DNA of 63,291 bases, filler included, from Sphacelaria rigidula (lineage: Eukaryota), in the NCBI GenBank assembly GCA_964200075.2. It is 9 parts of 9 records of this genome, joined end to end, with 100 filler letters (N's around TTAATTAATTAA, not from the genome) between each part and the next. Parts side by side here need not be neighbours in the genome. Positions count along the whole stretch, not along the records: positions 7,045 to 13,988 come from CAXNAA020017284.1; 8 more parts are not named here. One strand, given 5' to 3'. The stretch's first letter is position 1. Each line of letters begins with the position of its first letter. Positions 6,945-18,000 of this stretch are shown one piece after another. The position numbers were made by a program, and so were the translations under genes. The notes under the pieces were generated by a model. It was not told the origin of the DNA. It worked only from the letters and a program-made list of their open reading frames with translations, and ran no database searches.

Positions 6945-7044
6945 NNNNNNNNNNNNNNNNNNNNNNNNNNNNNNNNNNNNNNNNNNNNTTAATTAATTAA
7001 NNNNNNNNNNNNNNNNNNNNNNNNNNNNNNNNNNNNNNNNNNNN
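6945..7044. other. Artificial contig spacer N44-TTAATTAATTAA-N44 (also 13989-14088, 21033-21132, 28077-28176, 35120-35219, 42163-42262, 49206-49305, 56249-56348)
   Basis: Identical 100-nt spacer with a six-frame stop linker, separating pieces of 6944 or 6943 bp. Confidence 0.98.
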
Positions 7045-7111
7045 GGCGTACTCATTTGTTGCTTGCCTTAGTCGTTTGACCATTGACCACGCATCCCTTT
7101 CGAGACGGAGC
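7045..7111 (-). mobile_element. LINE 3' tail, subfamily A
   Basis: Reverse complement of the ...GGTCAAACGACTAAGGCAAGCAACAAATGAGTACGCC tail, cut by the contig edge where the C tract would be. Confidence 0.8.
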
Positions 7112-7426
7112 AAAATCTACCTACGTGTCCGTATCTCGCCCCAAAAGAGGCCTATCCAACAAACTCATGAGCAAAATCGGCACTTGCTACGATACACCAC
7201 CCCAAGAAGTGCCTGGTTTGAGCAGGCAAAAATTTCATTAAAAGTGAAATGGAAAAGGCCACGCACAACGAGCAGCTGGAAATTCCCACGCTTGGGTTCG
7301 TTCTTGCCAATGTCGCCCATATGAGGCGCTTCATGCAGCCCGAGCCCAAACACCAGGCGCTGTATGGTCATTTTTTCGTGACACTATCTGGCCGGTTGGG
7401 GGCGGGGGGGGGGCTATCGTAGAACG

Positions 7427-7649
7427 TTGTAATGCGTGAGAAACCCGCGTGCTTAGAGGACCGCACCGGAATATAACCACTCCTATCGTTAGGGTTAGGG
7501 TTAGGGTTAGGGTTGGGGTTGGGGTTAGGGTTAGGGGCATGCATGGTCCCTTCAGGGACTGGCTCGATTGGTCTTGAAAAACGTCGATCCTGAGGTGTGT
7601 CGATCTACGGTGCGGTCCTCTAAGCACGCGTTCCTCTCACGCATTACAA
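7427..7649. mobile_element. MITE carrying internal telomeric (TTAGGG)n repeats
   Basis: TIRs TTGTAATGCGTGAGAAACCCGCGTGCTTAGAGGACCGCA / TGCGGTCCTCTAAGCACGCGTTCCTCTCACGCATTACAA. Eight TTAGGG/TTGGGG units at 7489-7536. Second, inverted copy at 47019-47534. Confidence 0.8.
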
Positions 7650-8218
7650 AGTGTCAATCACCAGGGGGAGTATAAATGGGATTGATCGGTGAATAGCAGA
7701 AAGAATTTGAAAACACACGAGGACTAAACGAAAGAGCTACTGTAGATGCTTTGTTGTGGCATAAGAGTGTGACTGGAAAAAAGGCTGGTACGAAATGCCC
7801 TTTTTTCTGGCAAAGTGTTGCGGATTTTTCGAAAACCTAAAGCGGAAAACGATCATATAGACAACTTGAATGAATAGAGAACAAACTTAATACAAGAAGC
7901 GATTTCTCAGCGTAGCCGAAGAAACGAGAAAGGGCACTAGAGTGATGCTACGGTAGGGGGTGCACTTTTTTAGCGCGAAAAGGTTTCTCGGAGATGCTCG
8001 GGGTGTTGGACGGGTCACTGTGTGAATCGGCATCATTTATACTTGAAAAAGACTGAAAGTGATGCCGATTCACGAAACGACCCCTGCGTGCAAACACTAT
8101 GTTTCTGGGAACCCGGTCCCCGAATATTTATTGGGTTGCATAGCAGTAACTCCCACATATGTTTGCTTCTACAAGAACGAGAGCCCTAGAAACAAAACGT
8201 GTAACCCCCACCAACTAC

Positions 8219-8508
8219 GTTTTCGTGAGCTTGAGAGTATAGCGCTGGTTGAGAGTGGCTTTGATCATTCGCTTTATCTTAGCCAATTTTTCCATTCCGT
8301 GTGCGCTCTTTTTTACCTCCATCACTGCCGTGTGTGTACAGCTACACGTCGATATCCTACTCAGGCGTATCAAGGGCCCCAGTGGCAAGCTGCTACAGAG
8401 AGCATATCGGGCTTTGTGGAGGGGCATTTCGGAGCTGAAACGATCCATTCACTAATTGATCTGTTTTCACTCTCAATCGTATCTTCTACTCTCAATCTCA
8501 CCAAAACA
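8219..8508. mobile_element. ~290-bp MITE family (copies also at ~18797-19085, ~19125-19381, ~39422-39713, ~41333-41626)
   Basis: Termini GTTTTCGTGAG(A/C)TTGAGAGT...ACTCTCAATCTCAC(G/C)AAAAC are inverted repeats. The conserved interior (CGATATCC...CAAGGGCCCCAGTGGC...GGGCATTTCGGAACTG) recurs on several unrelated contigs. Confidence 0.8.
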
Positions 8509-10218
8509 TTGTTTACCGTAGGATTTCTCAAGTAAGTGATGAAACAGGATCCTGGAGAAGAAAACGTAGAGAAGTGGAGGGTAAAATGATTTTTGCAATT
8601 TCACGGAAAACAGCAGCAGTTCCTGCCCCGCCGAAAATAGTGAGCTTGATTGAAGAAGTTCGGACTCAAATTATCGAAAGAGAAAATAAGATCAATCGAG
8701 TAAGAAAAACGTGTATCCTTACACTTGGAGGCATGCACTAGTGAGTAGCATATTGCTTTTCCCGGCTAATCAGCAGGGTTGAGAACCATGCGACAATCAT
8801 TGATACCGGAAAATGACCGCAGACCCGATTGAAATCAGAAGAGGGACGATTGGAAAGACATGCTCACGAAAAATAGGGGTTTCCTACTTAATGTGTACCA
8901 AAGCCGTTCACATTTCTTGCCTAAGGTTGAGACCCACGCGGGGAGTTATGGCCAAAATCTAGAGAGGGATAAGTATGTTCAGAAATCGAACAGTTTACCC
9001 ATTGAATCAATGAGTGAACAGTTTACCCACTGAACCGGTGAGCGGCTCACTGGTTTAATCGACAAACTGTTCGCTCCCTGAATAAAAGCTTTGCGGTACG
9101 AGTACCGGCATGATCCATTGTGGAAAGAATGAGGTCGGCATGTGAACAGTGGGCATGTGCAAGAACTTCGCGGTGAAACATTTCTCAGGCATACAGTTCT
9201 CCGTACCTACGTTCATTATTTTGTACGATCTGTACCATAGTTTCAGAAGAGGCTTCACAACATTCGGTAGGGGGCATATGCTGAGCTTGTATGGCTCTTC
9301 GAAATTCCTCGGAAGTTGGTGGCGCGTGTAAAACACACGAACGAGGGCGTCATATCGCCGTGTTTGTAATTGAATTGGAGGAAAACTTGTAGGTCTTGAG
9401 TTTTGCTCATGTTTGTGACAGTTCAGCATGCTCCTGTGCAGCATAATTCCACGATTTTATCTTCAGCCGTGTCCATCTTGAAAAAGCCATGGATCACACC
9501 GAAATGATTTTATTTCTCGTCTTTCCCCGGGGTCTTCTGCCGGACTGTTTCTGCGGGCTAGTTCCAAACCTTGGTTCGAAGAAAAAACGCAGTAATGGTT
9601 ATCCTGTTGTGAAGCTCTCGTTATTATTCATTCATTCATTATGAGCGTGACACTTGTTCGTGAATATCAAGAAAATTCGCTCCACTGTATCTCCAACTGC
9701 AGGATGGATGTCACCCTCGCACAAGAAACAAAGAATATTATCCGTACCCGTTTGCCATGATGATGCCCAGACCAGGCACTCTTCCTTTGTCGCTTTTCTC
9801 CGAAAGGGCAGTGACGCGATCCTTGACCTGCTGGCGGATGACCTTAGCGGCAAACTTTCCATTCAACGGAAGGGCTGGGACTCCCGCCTCCCGCACCATA
9901 TGGGTTGGCGTCGTGCCGAGGGAGGGGCTCTGCTCATATAGACGAAGTTCGCAAGAGGGAAAGACGACAGGGCGGGGGAGATGTGATTCGAAGGCTGGCT
10001 GTGTTACCTCATCCAGGGGTACCAAGAGGAATTATGATGTCGGAAGGCGCCGTGTAGATGTGCTTATGGCACGCAACGTGGGGGTGAAAACTAAGAGTTC
10101 GCCCTACCACGTGCCATTGGAAGAGGGTGCCATGTATGGTTGCTTGCACCCCCGGTGCACGCAATAATGACACCTGCATGCTAGTATTCAGCCCCCCCTC
10201 CTCCGTCGGTCGTATTTT

Positions 10219-11387
10219 CAGGGCTCTTTATGTTACACGTTACATGTTACGTCACTAATGTGACGTATGAAACGTTATACGTGACGTCACAAATTTTTGC
10301 ACAGGAAAACTTATACGTCATGTCATGTCACATTTTTTTACGGGAGCGTTACGTTACGTCACACTTGTGACGTATTCAAAAGTTATACGTCACTTTACGT
10401 CACAGTAACGTACTTTGAAACGTTTCCCGTACCGCGTAACGAATTTAATACGTCACACGTCAATTTAAACGTTACACGTAGCAATAAACGTTACACGTCA
10501 CATATTATACGTTTGTGACGTCTGCATGAACGTCACAACCGTCACACGCTCAACTTGTACCACTACTAGTGTGAGATTAGCTTATGTGATACTCGCATGA
10601 TATGATACATAGGCTCAAGAAGAGTGTGCATACGTCATCATAATACGCACGCGATGTAAGCGCAAGTTCAGCGCCATGGCAGCATGCACCGACACACCCG
10701 ACCATAGAACATAGAACAAGCGAATATCGGAATCCGAAAGCACGAGTTTCAAATTTCCGAATTTCGAATTTCCAACTTCGATAGCACAGACGGGCGGGAG
10801 CGACGTGTAAGGTAACAATGACCGCGGCCTAGGGTACCGAAACGACGAGCGAGCAAGAACGCATTCTTACATGTTAACATAGCGGGCAGAACGCGCCTCA
10901 TGCTCGAACAAGGCAGCCACCGTGAACCTCCCGTACCAAGTTGCGGTACATGAAACCTTACAACGTCGTACGTGGCGTTCATTTGCCCTCAACACGATTG
11001 ATGTGTAACTTTTCATTTTACGTCACATGTCACGAACGTAACGTATATTAGTCGTTACACGTCACACTGACGTTCCAAAATGCGTTGCACGTCACACACC
11101 TGACGTTTCAAAATACGTTACACGTCACCAACGTATAATAATGTGATGTGTAACGTTTCATGTAACGTGTAATGTATAAAATACGTTACACGTTACATGA
11201 AACGTTTCAAATTACGTCTATATGACATATAAAAAAACATCACGTCACGTCACACTTGTGACGTATTGAAAAATTGAACGTTACGTAACGTCACATTTTT
11301 TCACCGATACGTTACGTTACGTCACACCCTTGTGACGTACGTTTGTGATGTGTAACGTACGTGTAACGTGTAGCGTCAAGAGCCCTG
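10219..11387. mobile_element. Non-autonomous hAT-like DNA transposon with ACGT-rich subterminal repeats
   Basis: TIR CAGGGCTCTT...AAGAGCCCTG. Imperfect 8-bp flanks CGTATTTT (10211-10218) and GTTATTTT (11388-11395). Dense GTTACACGT/ACGTCAC motifs at both ends. Confidence 0.75.
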
Positions 11388-11701
11388 GTTATTTTGGTGA
11401 TACCATTGACGTGTTTCCAAACGGCTTGACTGCTTAGAACTCGTGATGCGTTGTATGCGGTTGCTTGTGTGCGTGCCGCTCAGATGGCCGCTGGCACACG
11501 TAACCTTACGACAGATTATGAGTGAATCGAGCGACGAACGTGCAGCGCGAATCGGACTCTGACCACACCCCGTTTTCGCGTCGTGTAACCATTTCAACCC
11601 GTCTTTACCCTGAGATATCTGTTTTGCAACACGGTTGACCCTCTACGCTTGCTGTTCAACTTGCCGATAACCTAGCGACGTTCCAAAATACGCATCGTAC
11701 T

Positions 11702-13793
11702 TCATACCTTGAAGACGAAACGACGACGGGCGTCGTTGTGCCATGTGCTGGAGAAACACTCTCGCATCTTCGACAGTTCCGATGCTCTGTACCTCTCAAC
11801 CTACGTGTGGCACAGTATATCGACGTCGGTGAAAGCAAGCAGGTACGAGTCAGAGTTCGGCTGCGAGCTCTGCACAGCCTCACATGTTTCCCCAAAGTGC
11901 GGGTGAATACTGGTTAATGTAACCCATTCGTAGGAGCACCCGGAGCCACAGCGATCGCAACAAGGTATGGAAAAGAAAGCGAGACATAAGGGAGCGTGTC
12001 CGCTCGACTGAAGTAATGTATTCGTGGATCATGACCACGAGAAGGTGTGGATCTGGCATCGTTTATTGATTGGGTGTTGGTGTGACAGGATTCGAAACCA
12101 TCACGACGAAATGAGACGAGCTGCAAGTCTCTATGCCATCGCGATTTTTTCACCCTTTGGAACCACGCAGTGTCTCTCTCTTGCTTCTTTGCAGCGATAA
12201 TTTCTTCGGCCACACCACTTGCCAAGAGCTCCTGAGCGCGGCCTCGGATGTAGCATGCCTGGTTCAGTTCAGAAGAGCAGATAAGTAGACCCGTTTTAAC
12301 GGCAGAAAAGACGAGGGAGATGATCGGTTTTGCTGTCGTGGGTTGCCCGCTTTTTAATTGACAGTGCCGGTGAGTATGGATTGCACCTGCGAAACAGGAG
12401 CGAGGATCTAAGTCATGCATGTTAGCGCCGCAATGGAAAAGGGTGTCAATTTTTGTTGGCCACACTCTACCCCCCCCCTCGTTAAGACGAGGATCGGGCC
12501 TGGTTCGGCGAAAACCCGGCGTGTTCCGTCCTGGCTTTGTAGGGGTGCGAGGTCATAGGTCTTATGACTACGGCATGCAAGATCATGACTATACCCCCGC
12601 TCCCCCGCTCCCCCGCTCCCCTCCTCAGACGAGTCCGTGATCTCAAAGGAACAATCGATCTCTGCCCGGTACCAGCCTTGCATTCCGGTCTCGCAGAGTT
12701 GATCAACACTCCCGTACCGGGTAAACGTTCGACAAACAAACTCAGTCAACCACCTATTGTTTACTCACGTCCCCACGCTTTCAACGGTGAAAATCAGATA
12801 CTTCGAAGAAAAACCCAACGCTTCTGGCGGGAATCGAACCCACATTCTCTACACCCTAATGGTGTCAGTCGGGCCATTACTTACGCCACCGGGGTGCGGC
12901 GGTCTATTACACACCAATTAGTTTGACCCGTCTTACCGTCACACATGAATGAATGGCAAAAGGTAAAGGACGTATCGCATACTTTGCTGTTGGTTATGCT
13001 CCTCATTTTTGAGCTCTTCTAATTTCTCGCGTATCGTTCTTCGCTTGCTTCGGAAACCACAGAAATTCTAGTTTCATACCTCCTCATGGAAGGCCAAGCT
13101 TGGCGAGTAGCGCATCAAGTCGTCCACCATTCCAAGGGCTAGCGCTTGACTCGCGGTGATCGCTCGGGTGCTGTCTGTGAGCTCCTTCGCTGCCTCCTTA
13201 CCCATCCTTGCTTGTAAAAAAAACGACCAGTACTCCGAACCCGTCAACTCCATGGCCTGTCAACCCACAAGTTCGCGAAGTACTAGGATCATTCCTGGTG
13301 GTGGTGGAATGACGTGTATTTCTAGGATGGGACAGCGCTTCGCAAACACATGCGCGCAACGCTTTGCGATCTACGTGTGTTTCGTCGCGTGATGTTTTTA
13401 GGGCAACCTGTTGTCACGTGAAGAAACAACCGGTGTCTAAGTTATCCAGGTAATGAAGCTACGCGCACAGAAAAAAACACTTTTGTGGAGCTGTCTACTG
13501 GTCGAACCCGCGGTCGTCCTCCTGACAGCATCGATAGTCTTTGGGGCGGCGTTGTCGCGCCCTTCGCGGTAATTGTGCGCTCTTTTACGACACGGCACCA
13601 CGATGGTCAAGCATACCTTATAGTGGGGATTGAGAATAATGCTTTCGTGAGCCCACACGAGATCGGACGACATTGCTGCCATTGCCCCACCGGCTCCGGC
13701 ATTGCCCCGCATGGCGCTGACGACGACCTTGTCCGTGATAGAGAACGCCTCCATGATGGAGTCGTTGATCGCGTTGATGTTCCTCCACGATTC
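11702..13793 (-). CDS. hypX: HypX/HoxX-like protein, C-terminal enoyl-CoA hydratase/crotonase-like domain (5'-partial, 4 exons)
   Basis: Four phase-0 GT-AG exons. 13793-13617: ESWRNINAINDSIMEAFSITDKVVVSAMRGNAGAGGAMAAMSSDLVWAHESIILNPHYK. 13256-13080: AMELTGSEYWSFFLQARMGKEAAKELTDSTRAITASQALALGMVDDLMRYSPSLAFHEE. 12258-12154: ACYIRGRAQELLASGVAEEIIAAKKQERDTAWFQR. 11800-11708: VERYRASELSKMRECFSSTWHNDARRRFVFK, then GTA TGA (V-stop at 11702, or a further donor). The motifs ESWxNINAI, GNAGAGG, LNPHYK, GSEYW and YRxxELxxM...ARxxFVxK are those I recognise from bacterial HypX. Upstream exons lie beyond the contig edge. Confidence 0.88.
12497..12622 (+). mobile_element. LINE 3' tail, subfamily B, with C-rich tail (intronic in the HypX-like gene)
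   Basis: GGCGAAAACCCGGCGTGTTCCGTCC...TTTGTAGGGGTGCGAGGTCA...CTTATGACTACGGCATGCAAGATCATGA followed by (CCCCCGCT)n. Other copies at ~28030-28076(-), 28222-28310, 35490-35592, 40944-41032, 45650-45770. Confidence 0.75.
12622..12895 (-). mobile_element. tRNA-derived SINE, family 2
   Basis: Minus-strand head CCCCGGTGGCGTAAGTAATGG (A box) ... GTGGGTTCGATTCCCGCC (B box). Body shared with ~14615-14830, ~49395-49610 and ~54690-54975. Confidence 0.7.
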
Positions 13794-14885
13794 CTGGATA
13801 AACGCGGCATATAATACCAGCGGCCGGTGGTTCATGTGGCGACGGCATTGCATCTGTATGTAACACCAAAGGCCTCTTGTATCGTGTGAACTAGAACGGT
13901 CGGCCGCGTAGATGTGTTAGAGAGAGATCGTAGCGGCTTTAGTAGCGCTTCTCAGTTGCCGGTATGCCACGCTCGGATGTCTACAAGTNNNNNNNNNNNN
14001 NNNNNNNNNNNNNNNNNNNNNNNNNNNNNNNNTTAATTAATTAANNNNNNNNNNNNNNNNNNNNNNNNNNNNNNNNNNNNNNNNNNNNCCCCCCCCCGCG
14101 ACCCGCGCCTAAAAAGGGATGGGGGGGCGGTGGTCAAACGACGAAGGCAAGCAACAAATGAGACCCCCCCCCCCCCCCCCCCCTCCCGGTACACGCCTTA
14201 CACTTTGGTAACGCGGGTTGATTTGCATCAGCACTCCCGCACCACATCACACGGCGTAGACTGTCCTCGAACACTGGTACTGGAAGAAGAACGAGGACGA
14301 TACGGATGTCTTGCAACAGTATGAAAGCTGCCAACAGTTACGACTACGTTACTCTGTTCGCAGTTAATAGAAGCTGTCAGCCGCAGCGTCCGTCCCCTTG
14401 GCCCCTGTAGCGCACAGGCCCTAAGGATCATGTTGTAGCCGGCGATGTTACTGTTGTACTTGATACAAGGCAGCACGATCCCTTTTACTGCATGTAGCTC
14501 GCTCACAAGTCGTGTTTTGATCCACGACATGGCGATAGTATGCTTCCCCTTACCCCCCATACCCCCGTCGCTCACTCATTCTCCCTTGTTTTCTGATCGC
14601 ACTTTGAACCCGTCCCTCTCCTCGGGACGAGTCCGTGGTCTCAAGGGATGAGGCCATCTCTCCCCGGTGCATGCCTTGCATTTTGGTCTCGCGGATGGGA
14701 GTCCGTAGTCTAGCACCGCATCAATTCTCATGACACGAACTCATTCACTCTGCTTTATGCTTGGTCACGCACGTACCCGCGCTGTCGACGGTGGAAATCG
14801 GATACTGTACTTTCGAAGAAAATATGTCATTTTCATATTCGTTTTTTTTTCGCGTTTTTTTTTCGTGTTTTTTTCTTTTTTCAAG

Positions 14886-15038: not shown

Positions 15039-18000
15039 CGCTTTGCCTCGTCTTTGGCTATACGCACACACACACACACACACACACACCATACACATAC
15101 ATACATACATATATACACAAAGGGTGTTTGTATGTGTGTGTATTTTTTCCTTCAGACCGAGTGGTTCAGGGCCGCTTGCTGTTGCTGTTGGTTGTTGTCG
15201 CGGTTGTGCTCGTTCTCGCTGTTTGTTGTTTGTTGTTGTCTGGGGTCATGTATGTAGCGTGCTTCGAAAATGTCGCACGACGCGGTAGCGTAGGCGGTAG
15301 CTTTCTAACCGGGGTCACGGTGTGATCAACGTATCCTCCATGACACTGAAAACTGCGGCAAAGCTACCACGAGCAACAAGATAGAGTGTTGTTCCAGTCA
15401 TGCTCCAGGATCCTCTCTTGGAGCTTCCCTTGGAGCAAGGAGATACTTTCAATGAAACCATCGTGCGTGGTGGGTGATGATGTCATTGAAAATTTATCGT
15501 TCCCGGGACCGTTCCTCCCAGGGGTCCCCACGGCATTTGATGAATAATGACATGAGTAGCGATCATGTTCCAGAGTAGATATGAAGGGGGGAAAGAAGTG
15601 TGTGGTTTACCTGAATAGTGCATGCGCAAATTTTGTTACTTGTCAACCGCTGGCAGCCCTTGCACAATGGTATATATGTACGTGTATGTGTACCTAGCGG
15701 TCCATCGTAGAGTAGCATTCCTGGATTGGCTGAGCTCTGGTTCATGAGAGGGAGCGGTGCACTGCACTCGTCTCTCTCGGCGTAAAATATTTATGCGTTT
15801 TGACGTGCTGCAGCAGTGCGTTTTGAGGGTTATTATTCAACGCCTTTTGTTTTGCCTCTCGTCAATCGCGTGCTACTCGGATTTTTTTCTTCTATTTTCC
15901 CTGTTTCTGATACCTTGCAGTGCATGAAAGGCGGTTTGGATTGGTCTGGTTTTGCGCTCCTCCACAGACATCTCCAAGCTAAGCTCGCTGCATGCTCTCC
16001 AATTTTGTCTTGTGTTAAAATGTTTTTTACTCTTTTTTTCTGTCTGTGTATCTTGTGTGTCGAAATCGCGGTCCTCGTCTGGTCGAGGTGGACTGCGCAC
16101 ATATGAAGGGAAGGGGTGGGGCGGGGGGGGGAAGTGATGTTGGGAAATGTGAATATGGAATCGAAATGAATTATGGACGGCGCTTGATCAGGGGGTTTGG
16201 CTGTTGATTGCATCCTGCGGCTTTGCAGTAGCAAATTAAGGTATGAACATCGATGGTATTCTATCACGTTACTTGTCTGTTTCCCCAAACCAGCATATAC
16301 ACATATTTATATATATATATTTATTTTTTTGTGTGGCACGTTGTTTGTTAGTTCTGTGCCCGGGAACAAAGGTCGAACGGCTTGAGTGAACTAGTCGCAA
16401 GGCTTCTTTTGTTTTTGTTCTCTTTGTCATCACCTACCGTTGTGTAAACGTGGACCTCCTAGCGGGGAACCGAAGCTAGGTTGGTTAACGTGTGTGTTTG
16501 TCACGCGATCGAAAGCGTCCATGCGAGTGTGGTCCATGTGCTACGGAGATGCCGTCGGTCGTCTGTACTGAAGTGCCATAGTGAGAATACACTGTCGTGT
16601 GCCTTAACTTAGTTGCCAGTGTTTCTGGGGTATTTCCAGCCCGGAGCACTTCCTAGCATATGCTGAGTTTTCCAGTGTATTTGTGGTATCGAGAACCCTC
16701 CAGGGTACCCTGTATTTCCGGGGTATTTTCAGTGTTGAGTACTCCCCGTGTATCCTACGTTTCGCGGGTACTAGTAGTATCGAGTAACTCCCCCCCCCGG
16801 GGGGGGGGATACTCGGGGTATCAACAGTACGGGATACCCTCTGCCCCCCTTCACGGTACCCTGTGTTCCAAAATGGTATTTGCAGTACCGAATATCCAGG
16901 GTACCACAGGGGTATTAACTGTACAATAACCATATCGGTACCCGTACCCTATCTTTGATACCTTCGCTTGCGCTGAGAGACGAGGGGGAAACTACTGAGG
17001 CGCTTGACGTTCTGGTGCTTTGACGACCCGCATTTTCTCGACGCATCGGTCCTTTGAACTCATGTGTGTGAGGATCTAGGCCTTCGCCTCGCACGGCTGT
17101 GGGTTTTGTGCAGCGGCTCTTCGCGGCCAGCCAGGGTCGTGGGCATACGTTGATCGTGTGCAGTTTTTATTTGTGCATTTTGTTTGAAGAATGACATGTG
17201 TATCGTAGGTATGGCAGCTTTTTTGCCTTGTTGTGCGTTGAGAAAAGGAGAGCCATGGAGGAGCGTGCCCGGTTTGACAATGATATGGGGAATATATAAG
17301 CTGGTTATTCCCTCTCGCTTTAGGTGTTTTGTATTGTGGTGTGGCGTGTTTCTTCAACCATGTGTATTTGGGTGTGGTGGAAAGTGAAGTAGTCGTAGGT
17401 GTTTTTCACACCCCGAATGAAAAGTCCTGGCGCCTGTCCACACGATGTGCGGTGGTTCAGTCACGTCAAATGCATACATCCGCTTGTTACCGTGCTCTGG
17501 CTTTCGTTGCACAAGTGTCCAGTGCATACAATGTCCAAACGCATGACTTCTTTTGCTTCGAGGAGTAGGTAGCATCATGACACGTTTGTAGTGATGCTGC
17601 TGCATATGTATATGTAATATAGTGTAGTATCGTAATATGCATGAACACTTTTGGCAAAGTGGTGATGGTTTTGTCAATCCCCGGAGTTCAATTTTGTTGC
17701 GAGTAACAACCGACTAGCCACCGACCTATCACGATGCTCTTCCGTTTGCCGCTTTGTCGGTGGCTTACCCTGTGTGCGGTAGAATGGCTTACTTTTTTTG
17801 TTGCTCTTTTTGGGATCAGTTTGTCAGGGAGGAAACCTGCTGAGCTCGAGGCGGGTGCACTTGAGAGGGAGGGCAAGGAAGTCGCGTCAAGCATTCAGCA
17901 AACGCGTCTACGTGCCGAGAACTAACTGCCTTATGAACGAATGGACGCTCATGAGCGTGGCGGACCGACGTTCGTTCCGCTTTTTGGCGGGGTACTGTTG

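Follow-up and report, generated by a model that had tools for sequence, protein, structure and literature searches.

A spliced HypX/HoxX-family gene of the brown alga Sphacelaria rigidula leads into a FolD-type domain and is a candidate for folate-dependent carbon monoxide formation

To our knowledge, no enzyme other than HypX is known to form carbon monoxide (CO) from one-carbon units of the folate pool, and work on HypX has been confined to its part in assisting the oxygen-tolerant hydrogenases of bacteria. Published accounts of the bacterial protein describe an N-terminal domain that passes the formyl group of N10-formyl-tetrahydrofolate (N10-formyl-THF) to bound coenzyme A (CoA), and a crotonase-like domain that decarbonylates the formyl-CoA to CO (PMC6802093, PMC12134894). 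Within this scheme His74, Asp80 and Asp109 are given as the formyl-transfer triad (PMC6802093) and Tyr416 and Glu426 as candidate bases in the decarbonylation of formyl-CoA (Muraki et al. 2019, PMC6802093), while formation of CO from N10-formyl-THF via formyl-CoA by HypX in vitro is reported in a 2025 review (PMC12134894). Here we analyse a window of 63,291 nucleotides (nt) of DNA from the brown alga Sphacelaria rigidula (the whole stretch, artificial linkers included), one contig of which carries part of a gene that, as judged from its sequence, almost certainly belongs to the HypX/HoxX family. We consider that this locus is probably the central portion of a nuclear gene that looks intact, the product of which would consist of three modules (formyltransferase, HypX-type crotonase-like and FolD-type) and would run from methylene-THF to CO.

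An earlier note on this DNA had placed four phase-0 exons bounded by GT and AG on the contig, with the conserved motifs in a set order, and both the translations and the splice sites agree with that placement (Table 1). Exons A to D together encode 184 amino acids (aa), and in the reverse-complement reading each has AG just before it and GT just after it; at exon A, for instance, these dinucleotides lie at 13795-13794 and 13616-13615, respectively. Where the same note had ended the gene, by reading a Val codon and TGA at 11707-11702, we find instead that the GTATGA following exon D is a splice donor, with its GT at 11707-11706, and that the gene continues into a fifth exon, E, which is preceded by AG at 9931-9930 and whose 3' end reads GG immediately before the donor GT, in phase 2. 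When joined, the five exons form 734 nt (244 codons) free of stops, and all splice sites of the five-exon fragment are canonical. In a tblastn search of the 63-kb window with the closest full-length relative, P0007 (911 aa), exons A, B, C and D were recovered, well above chance level, at E=5e-19, 2e-27, 3e-9 and 2e-12, respectively, with 56% identity over 41 aa for exon C and 90% identity for exon D. Exon E was recovered in the same search at E=7e-26 and is collinear with the relatives, which run on directly past the final Lys of exon D. The five-exon product is identical to P0007 at 198 of 244 residues, to P0010 at 170 of 244 and to a protein of Ascophyllum nodosum at 171 of 243, and overall shows 70-81% identity to other brown-algal proteins.

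Table 1. Positions of the gene fragment and of its contig in the window; exons are listed in the direction of transcription.
Feature	Position	Strand	Description
Exon A	13793-13617	minus	59 aa, phase 0, stop-free; ESWRNINAI, GNAGAGG, LNPHYK; carries the Tyr416 equivalent
Exon B	13256-13080	minus	59 aa, phase 0, stop-free; GSEYW; carries the Glu426 equivalent
Intron B-C	13079-12259	minus	821 nt
Exon C	12258-12154	minus	35 aa, phase 0, stop-free; weakly conserved helical tail of the HypX module
Exon D	11800-11708	minus	31 aa, phase 0, stop-free; C-terminal end of the HypX module; YRASELSKM, ARRRFVFK
Intron D-E	11707-9930	minus	1778 nt
Exon E	9929-9748	minus	60 codons plus 2 nt; linker and first ~39 residues of the FolD-type (THF_DHG_CYH) domain
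Contig of the gene	7045-13988		6944 bp, between artificial linkers 6945-7044 and 13989-14088

The window is a chain of contigs of ~6944 bp, and the linkers between them, which recur every ~7044 bases and have the form N44-TTAATTAATTAA-N44, carry stops in all six frames. Since the segments are separate contigs joined by linkers, those that stand side by side in the window are not genomic neighbours. Beyond the five exons, every match in the window had an E-value of at least 0.65 in tblastn searches for which three full-length relatives served as queries (word size 2, E-values up to 50), and these searches placed no further exon of the HypX-like gene in the flanks of its contig, either at 7045-9747 (2703 nt) or at 13794-13988 (195 nt), indicating that the contig ends within introns on both sides. 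The formyltransferase half, which had earlier been said to lie off the contig, likewise has no tblastn match in the window, the contig ending at 13988. The remaining long open reading frames (ORFs) of contig 7045-13988 match no Pfam family. We also considered bacterial contamination as the source of the gene, and this is ruled out by the five spliceosomal-type exons and by the position of the sequence in the brown-algal clade described below.

Part of this gene is already represented in public databases, as exon A is 100% identical to P0005, a 119-aa partial protein of S. rigidula. The P0005 model spans exons A and B only and extends by one codon (Val) into the intron, and the fragments P0006, P0008 and P0012, which come from further assemblies of brown algae, also run 'HYK-V...' into the same intron. 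This shared reading through after HYK implies that the intron position is conserved and that those models are incomplete.

Exons A and B identify the family. In searches of the Protein Data Bank (PDB), all 59 residues of exon A match HypX of Aquifex aeolicus (6J0P and variants, chain 379-437) at E=9e-17, as compared with E=0.12 for the best ordinary crotonase, and exon B matches residues 442-490 of HypX at E=3.4e-4, followed by EchA17 at E=0.021. These searches favour HypX and bear out the original proposal that this is a HypX/HoxX-family gene, not an ordinary enoyl-CoA hydratase. ECH_1 is the sole Pfam family touched by exons A and B, at 22 and 13.5 bits, respectively, which is below the cut-off of 27; the same family scores 46-95 bits in the seven relatives tested. 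Exons C and D, for which neither Pfam nor the PDB yielded a relative when they were searched singly, are assigned to the gene because they are collinear with the brown-algal relatives. No HypX-specific model was matched in NCBIfam, where the window exons gave only sub-threshold crotonase matches, and bacterial HypX-like ORFs gave only sub-threshold matches to formyltransferase and crotonase models.

The two residues that had been picked out as retained, Tyr in NPHY and Glu in GSEYW, align with positions 436 and 446 of the 6J0P chain; with a chain index equal to native numbering plus 20, these are native Tyr416 and Glu426. In a 74-row alignment, His74, Asp80, Asp109, Tyr416 and Glu426 are all kept in 73 of 73 full-length rows, a set that includes three proteins from brown algae, six from animals and two from green algae. 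The remaining row is that of the window, which keeps Tyr416 and Glu426, the two residues that fall within its span.

Three full-length brown-algal relatives were available for comparison, namely P0007, P0010 (966 aa) and the A. nodosum protein (979 aa); P0007 and P0010 are taken as brown-algal from their 70-81% identity to, and their clade (support 100) with, the window sequence. Pfam found Formyl_trans_N, Formyl_trans_C, ECH_1, THF_DHG_CYH and THF_DHG_CYH_C in all five long forms tested, the three brown-algal proteins included, and PF00763 and PF02882 were matched in the relatives at E=1e-23 to 1e-54. By the same method, two proteins of Chlamydomonas sp. UWO241 had only Formyl_trans_N, Formyl_trans_C and ECH_1. 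P0007 aligns with 6J0P over residues 1-575 at E=7e-105 with all five of the proposed catalytic residues in place, and a formyltransferase domain with His74, Asp80 and Asp109 is present in each of the three brown-algal relatives. The last ~300 residues of P0007 match human MTHFD1, the Leishmania enzyme and Escherichia coli FolD at ~1e-56, and the equivalents of FolD Tyr52 (of the Tyr52-x3-Lys56 motif), Lys56, Gln100 and Asp125 are retained in all three brown-algal rows. Exon E on its own is too short to match Pfam, where it gave no hit, and its eight matches in the PDB at E ≤ 10 are all FolD/MTHFD N-termini, although they are weak (best E=0.013). The FolD domain of the full-length relatives is apparently competent, and its fusion to HypX argues, more strongly than any other new observation, that the module would use N10-formyl-THF.

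The same kind of fusion was found in bacteria, in a scan of bacterial and archaeal genomes for which the query was a fused protein placed within the bacterial HypX sequences. Full-length HypX-FolD fusions are present in four metagenome-assembled genomes (MAGs) of Chloroflexota (L001, L003, L012 and L014). In L001 the fusion is encoded at 10001-12706 by a single uninterrupted ORF of 901 aa with all five domains. Its FolD part is 68% identical to a stand-alone FolD of Ktedonobacteria, which belong to the same phylum, and its identity to the fused FolD parts of eukaryote type and the solo FolD-like proteins with which it was compared does not exceed 41%. As the fused FolD of Chloroflexota is closest to the phylum's own FolD, the fusion is convergent and arose independently, and on the HypX tree the fused state requires 5 changes. 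Repeated fusion of the maker of N10-formyl-THF to its consumer argues that FolD supplies the substrate of HypX. Independent unions of this kind are a classic hallmark of enzymes in a common pathway, and this independent fusion is the best evidence here arguing that the eukaryotic module would still act on formyl-THF.

We also annotated the surroundings of eight bacterial loci over ±10 kb, a range that leaves hydrogenases possible elsewhere in those genomes. The fusion in L001 has neither hyp nor hydrogenase genes within 10 kb, and a D-2-hydroxyacid dehydrogenase gene (8479-9465) is found just upstream of it. At one of the eight loci, in Nitrosomonas oligotropha (L069), hypD and hypE adjoin the HypX-like gene, and at six of the seven unfused loci (L046, L005, L063, L011, L004 and L017, from Lysobacter, Paenibacillus, an Acaryochloris plasmid, Peribacillus, a Chloroflexia MAG and Coleofasciculus) there are no hyp genes within 10 kb. 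Members of the HypX family in bacteria may therefore, on this genomic context, have hydrogenase-independent uses too.

Proteins related to P0007 are numerous: a search returned 5344 proteins at E ≤ 1e-20 (8000 candidates scored), and an exhaustive scan of cluster representatives returned 20051 matches at E ≤ 1e-3, 1935 of which reached E ≤ 1e-30. Among the best matches are fused proteins, 856-1030 aa in length, of Chrysoparadoxa australica and of the dinoflagellate Togula, others from several transcriptomes and metagenome contigs, and unfused proteins of 557-654 aa from Trichoplax, Hypsibius, Hydra, two corals and Branchiostoma. The latter are listed by NCBI as 'hydrogenase maturation factor HoxX(-like)', in keeping with the caveat in the earlier note that such annotations already exist in eukaryotes. 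A cluster of 206 Ascomycota members came from a language-model look-up (score 0.85) and is a lead only.

To place the window sequence among these proteins, we used a quick maximum-likelihood tree of 564 HypX columns, which is unrooted and for which the support values are those of the Shimodaira-Hasegawa-like approximate likelihood ratio test (SH-aLRT) only. The window groups with P0007 (99) within a brown-algal clade (100), which itself lies within a group of Togula-type fused forms and Chlamydomonas proteins (99), and the 11 named bacterial proteins form one clade (100). A single change separates the 19 eukaryotic rows, which are named or come from eukaryotic collections, from the 11 named bacterial rows, and this split, in a tree that is unrooted, speaks against the gene having been transferred to brown algae recently. 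Because the tree is unrooted, its sampling is skewed to matches of the brown-algal query and 34 of its rows are without an organism name, we claim no origin for the gene. Eukaryotic members (P0009, P0148, P0175, P0123 and others) often carry N-terminal extensions of 20-99 aa that are basic and acid-poor; such extensions, of 25-76 residues, are present in five of the six animal rows and in the Ascophyllum protein, whereas all 11 named bacterial rows have 0-2 residues before the conserved Met. From their composition, these extensions may be organellar presequences, in which case the protein would act in an organelle.

The presence of an intact-looking family member in an organism that is not known to have a hydrogenase of this bacterial kind, and its weld, in full-length relatives, to a substrate-making enzyme, a weld that recurs in bacteria, point to a pathway that stands on its own and leads from methylene-THF to CO. 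In such a pathway, the FolD module would oxidise 5,10-methylene-THF with NAD(P)+ and hydrolyse the methenyl-THF to N10-formyl-THF, the formyltransferase domain would load the formyl group onto bound CoA, and formyl-CoA would then be split into CO and CoA in the crotonase-like domain by means of the conserved Tyr and Glu. The net outcome would be the loss of a one-carbon unit, derived from serine or glycine, in the form of CO, with THF being set free again. The role that we prefer is the disposal of surplus one-carbon units, with the CO being either released or used as a gas, and we regard actual release of CO in vivo as reasonably probable.

A number of observations weigh against this proposal. 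CO release is predicted from sequence, and the window includes neither the formyltransferase half nor over 85% of the FolD domain, so that this copy is only putatively complete; when the first 380 aa of P0007 were used as a query, no fragment of the N-terminal half from S. rigidula was found among shorter database proteins (best identity 45%). In 3 of the 16 other fused rows the column of FolD Lys56 holds Ile, which may be an alignment error or may reflect lost cyclohydrolase activity. We know of no CO-using client in eukaryotes, CO inhibits respiration, and HypX is slow in vitro, which suits the supply of a ligand better than bulk production of a gas. Moreover, many of the organisms that carry the gene are not known to build up CO, and having the gene therefore does not predict that CO is stored. 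In addition, a 2026 genome paper credits the CO of siphonophore floats to a horizontally acquired heme oxygenase (PMC13579702), and the terms HoxX, HypX, folate and formyl do not occur in its main text.

Among other explanations, one, in our view unlikely, is that the enzyme moves formyl groups between formyl-CoA and THF without releasing CO. It could salvage formyl-CoA from oxalyl-CoA decarboxylation or alpha-oxidation, with FolD running toward methylene-THF, or could make formyl-CoA for some other acceptor; formyl transfer between THF and CoA would be reversible in principle, the FolD reactions are established as reversible, a client for CO in eukaryotes is not known to us, and seven of the eight bacterial loci are without hyp or hydrogenase genes within 10 kb. 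A shuttle of this kind is harder to reconcile with the invariance of Tyr416 and Glu426 in 74 of 74 rows, the window included, with the HypX-minus phenotype described for replacements of these residues in Ralstonia, and with the description of Aquifex HypX as binding CoA constitutively, in the manner of a prosthetic group and without exchange (PMC6802093). We hold it to be distinctly unlikely, even though maturation is the sole proven role of the HypX family, that the protein is a maturation factor which, by analogy with HypX and [NiFe]-hydrogenase, would provide CO for a metal cofactor with a CO ligand in some eukaryotic enzyme yet to be found. A metabolic role agrees better with the FolD fusion and with the wide spread of the family, which reaches from algae to animals. 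A slow, channelled enzyme would suit the delivery of a ligand, but [NiFe]-hydrogenase and Hyp proteins are, as far as we know, not found in eukaryotes.

The remaining two explanations concern the locus itself. It is very unlikely to be a broken or partial copy, that is, a pseudogene or an assembly fragment without a function of its own: five exons without a stop or frameshift and with canonical splice sites, 81% identity to P0007 and retained catalytic residues all speak for an intact gene, and the fact that just 244 of roughly 900-980 codons are present, with introns at both contig ends and a P0005 model of only two exons, is matched by the coincidence of the truncation with the contig ends of a fragmented assembly. 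There is practically no chance that the gene encodes an ordinary enoyl-CoA hydratase or isomerase, a reading to which the sub-threshold ECH_1 match, as the only Pfam signal of exons A and B, might seem to lend itself. The E-value of exon A favours HypX by about 15 orders of magnitude and the relatives carry formyltransferase domains in Pfam; an ordinary enoyl-CoA hydratase is refuted by the PDB matches of exons A and B, taken with the domains of the relatives and the alignment of P0007 with 6J0P.

If the preferred reading, a pathway that discards one-carbon units as CO, is true, it would provide a new way to discharge surplus one-carbon units, as well as a concrete gene for algal CO emission, for the CO of kelp floats and, via the animal homologues, for the CO of siphonophore floats. 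The link to the CO of kelp pneumatocysts that was drawn in the earlier note is unsupported and is speculation. S. rigidula itself is a small filamentous brown alga without floats; Undaria has relatives of the gene as well, and so do many organisms for which no storage of CO is known. Work by Wittenberg in 1960 and 1962 reportedly linked the CO of the siphonophore gas gland to serine and folate. The bulbs of Nereocystis are described as rich in CO (PMC9601103, citing Liggan and Martone 2020), and the CO of siphonophore floats is described as deriving from L-serine (PMC13579702, citing Wittenberg 1960). HypX homologues of animals include those of hydrozoans and corals, and a route from serine through folate to a HypX-type enzyme would directly fit the old siphonophore labelling. 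Eukaryotic HypX-type proteins carry FolD in brown algae and a number of protist lineages and lack it in cnidarians and other marine animals. We tentatively raise the possibility that all these proteins are folate-dependent synthases dedicated to CO and that, without any involvement of heme oxygenase, they give eukaryotes a second source of CO, in which the one-carbon unit of serine is turned into CO. If so, one enzyme would underlie both the CO of kelp floats and the serine- and folate-linked CO of the siphonophore gas gland.

The introns of the gene and the ends of its contig contain several repeats. Within intron D-E is an A+T-rich palindromic repeat element at ~10229-11330 (GC 0.395) with repeats of the ACGTCACA/GTTACGT type, inverted arms at 10396-10486 and 11139-11229 that are 76% complementary, and a near-perfect hairpin at 11143-11215. 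By its sequence the element looks like a miniature inverted-repeat transposable element (MITE), and an Rfam search of it gave only sub-threshold matches to microRNA hairpins. A 70-nt dispersed repeat is present, with 80% identity, at 12628-12697 in intron B-C and at 14626-14695 in the next, unrelated contig. Despite a tRNA-like stretch in intron B-C, ARAGORN predicted no tRNA in contig 7045-13988. A 57-nt inverted repeat (84%) has one copy at an end of the contig that carries the gene (7051-7107) and the other where the following contig starts (14106-14162), and long C and G runs are found at 14090-14190, beside the linker. Repeats of contig ends are the probable cause of the breaks in the assembly. 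The next contig also contains a (CA)n-type microsatellite at ~15040-15130, which shows up in ORF translations as runs of HTHTHT and CVCVCV.

With respect to what has been described before, the enzyme family and its eukaryotic annotations are already known, and its presence in eukaryotes is not new. The FolD-fused architecture, its recurrence and the hydrogenase-independent role that it implies appear to be undescribed. A literature search to which subscription journals were mostly closed found no study of eukaryotic HypX/HoxX function or of a HypX-FolD fusion. The terms HypX, HoxX, carbon monoxide, formyl and hydrogenase are absent from the main text of the Phaeoexplorer preprint, the supplements of which may list the gene, for example among transfer candidates.

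Compared with known systems, the brown-algal protein, as seen in the full-length relatives, is like bacterial HypX (that of A. aeolicus, 6J0P, and that of Ralstonia eutropha) in its formyltransferase and crotonase-like core, with ~40-45% identity over the whole core in the full-length relatives and the five proposed catalytic residues kept. It is unlike bacterial HypX in its eukaryotic host, in which we know of no [NiFe]-hydrogenase, in its spliceosomal introns, in the C-terminal FolD domain of the full-length relatives and in the basic N-terminal extensions that eukaryotic forms often have. The HypX-FolD proteins of Chloroflexota have the same five-domain order in one ORF, but they are bacterial and intron-free and took their FolD from that of their own phylum. 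Conversely, the animal HoxX-like proteins share the HypX core, the catalytic residues and the side of the tree on which the brown-algal clade lies, but are unfused, at about 557-654 aa, and owe their names to automatic annotation. FolD and MTHFD1 are matched by the C-terminal ~300 aa of the relatives, in which the YxxxK motif is kept; the brown-algal version differs in being one domain behind HypX, and the window holds just its first ~39 residues. Of the functional analogues, heme oxygenase is the known eukaryotic source of CO, which it makes from heme and not from folate. The N-terminal domain of ALDH1L1/FDH (10-formyl-THF dehydrogenase) is described as structurally related to the N-domain of HypX, and the enzyme as stripping the formyl group from N10-formyl-THF via a pantetheine arm with regeneration of THF (PMC6802093), but its product is CO2, whereas that proposed for the algal protein is CO.

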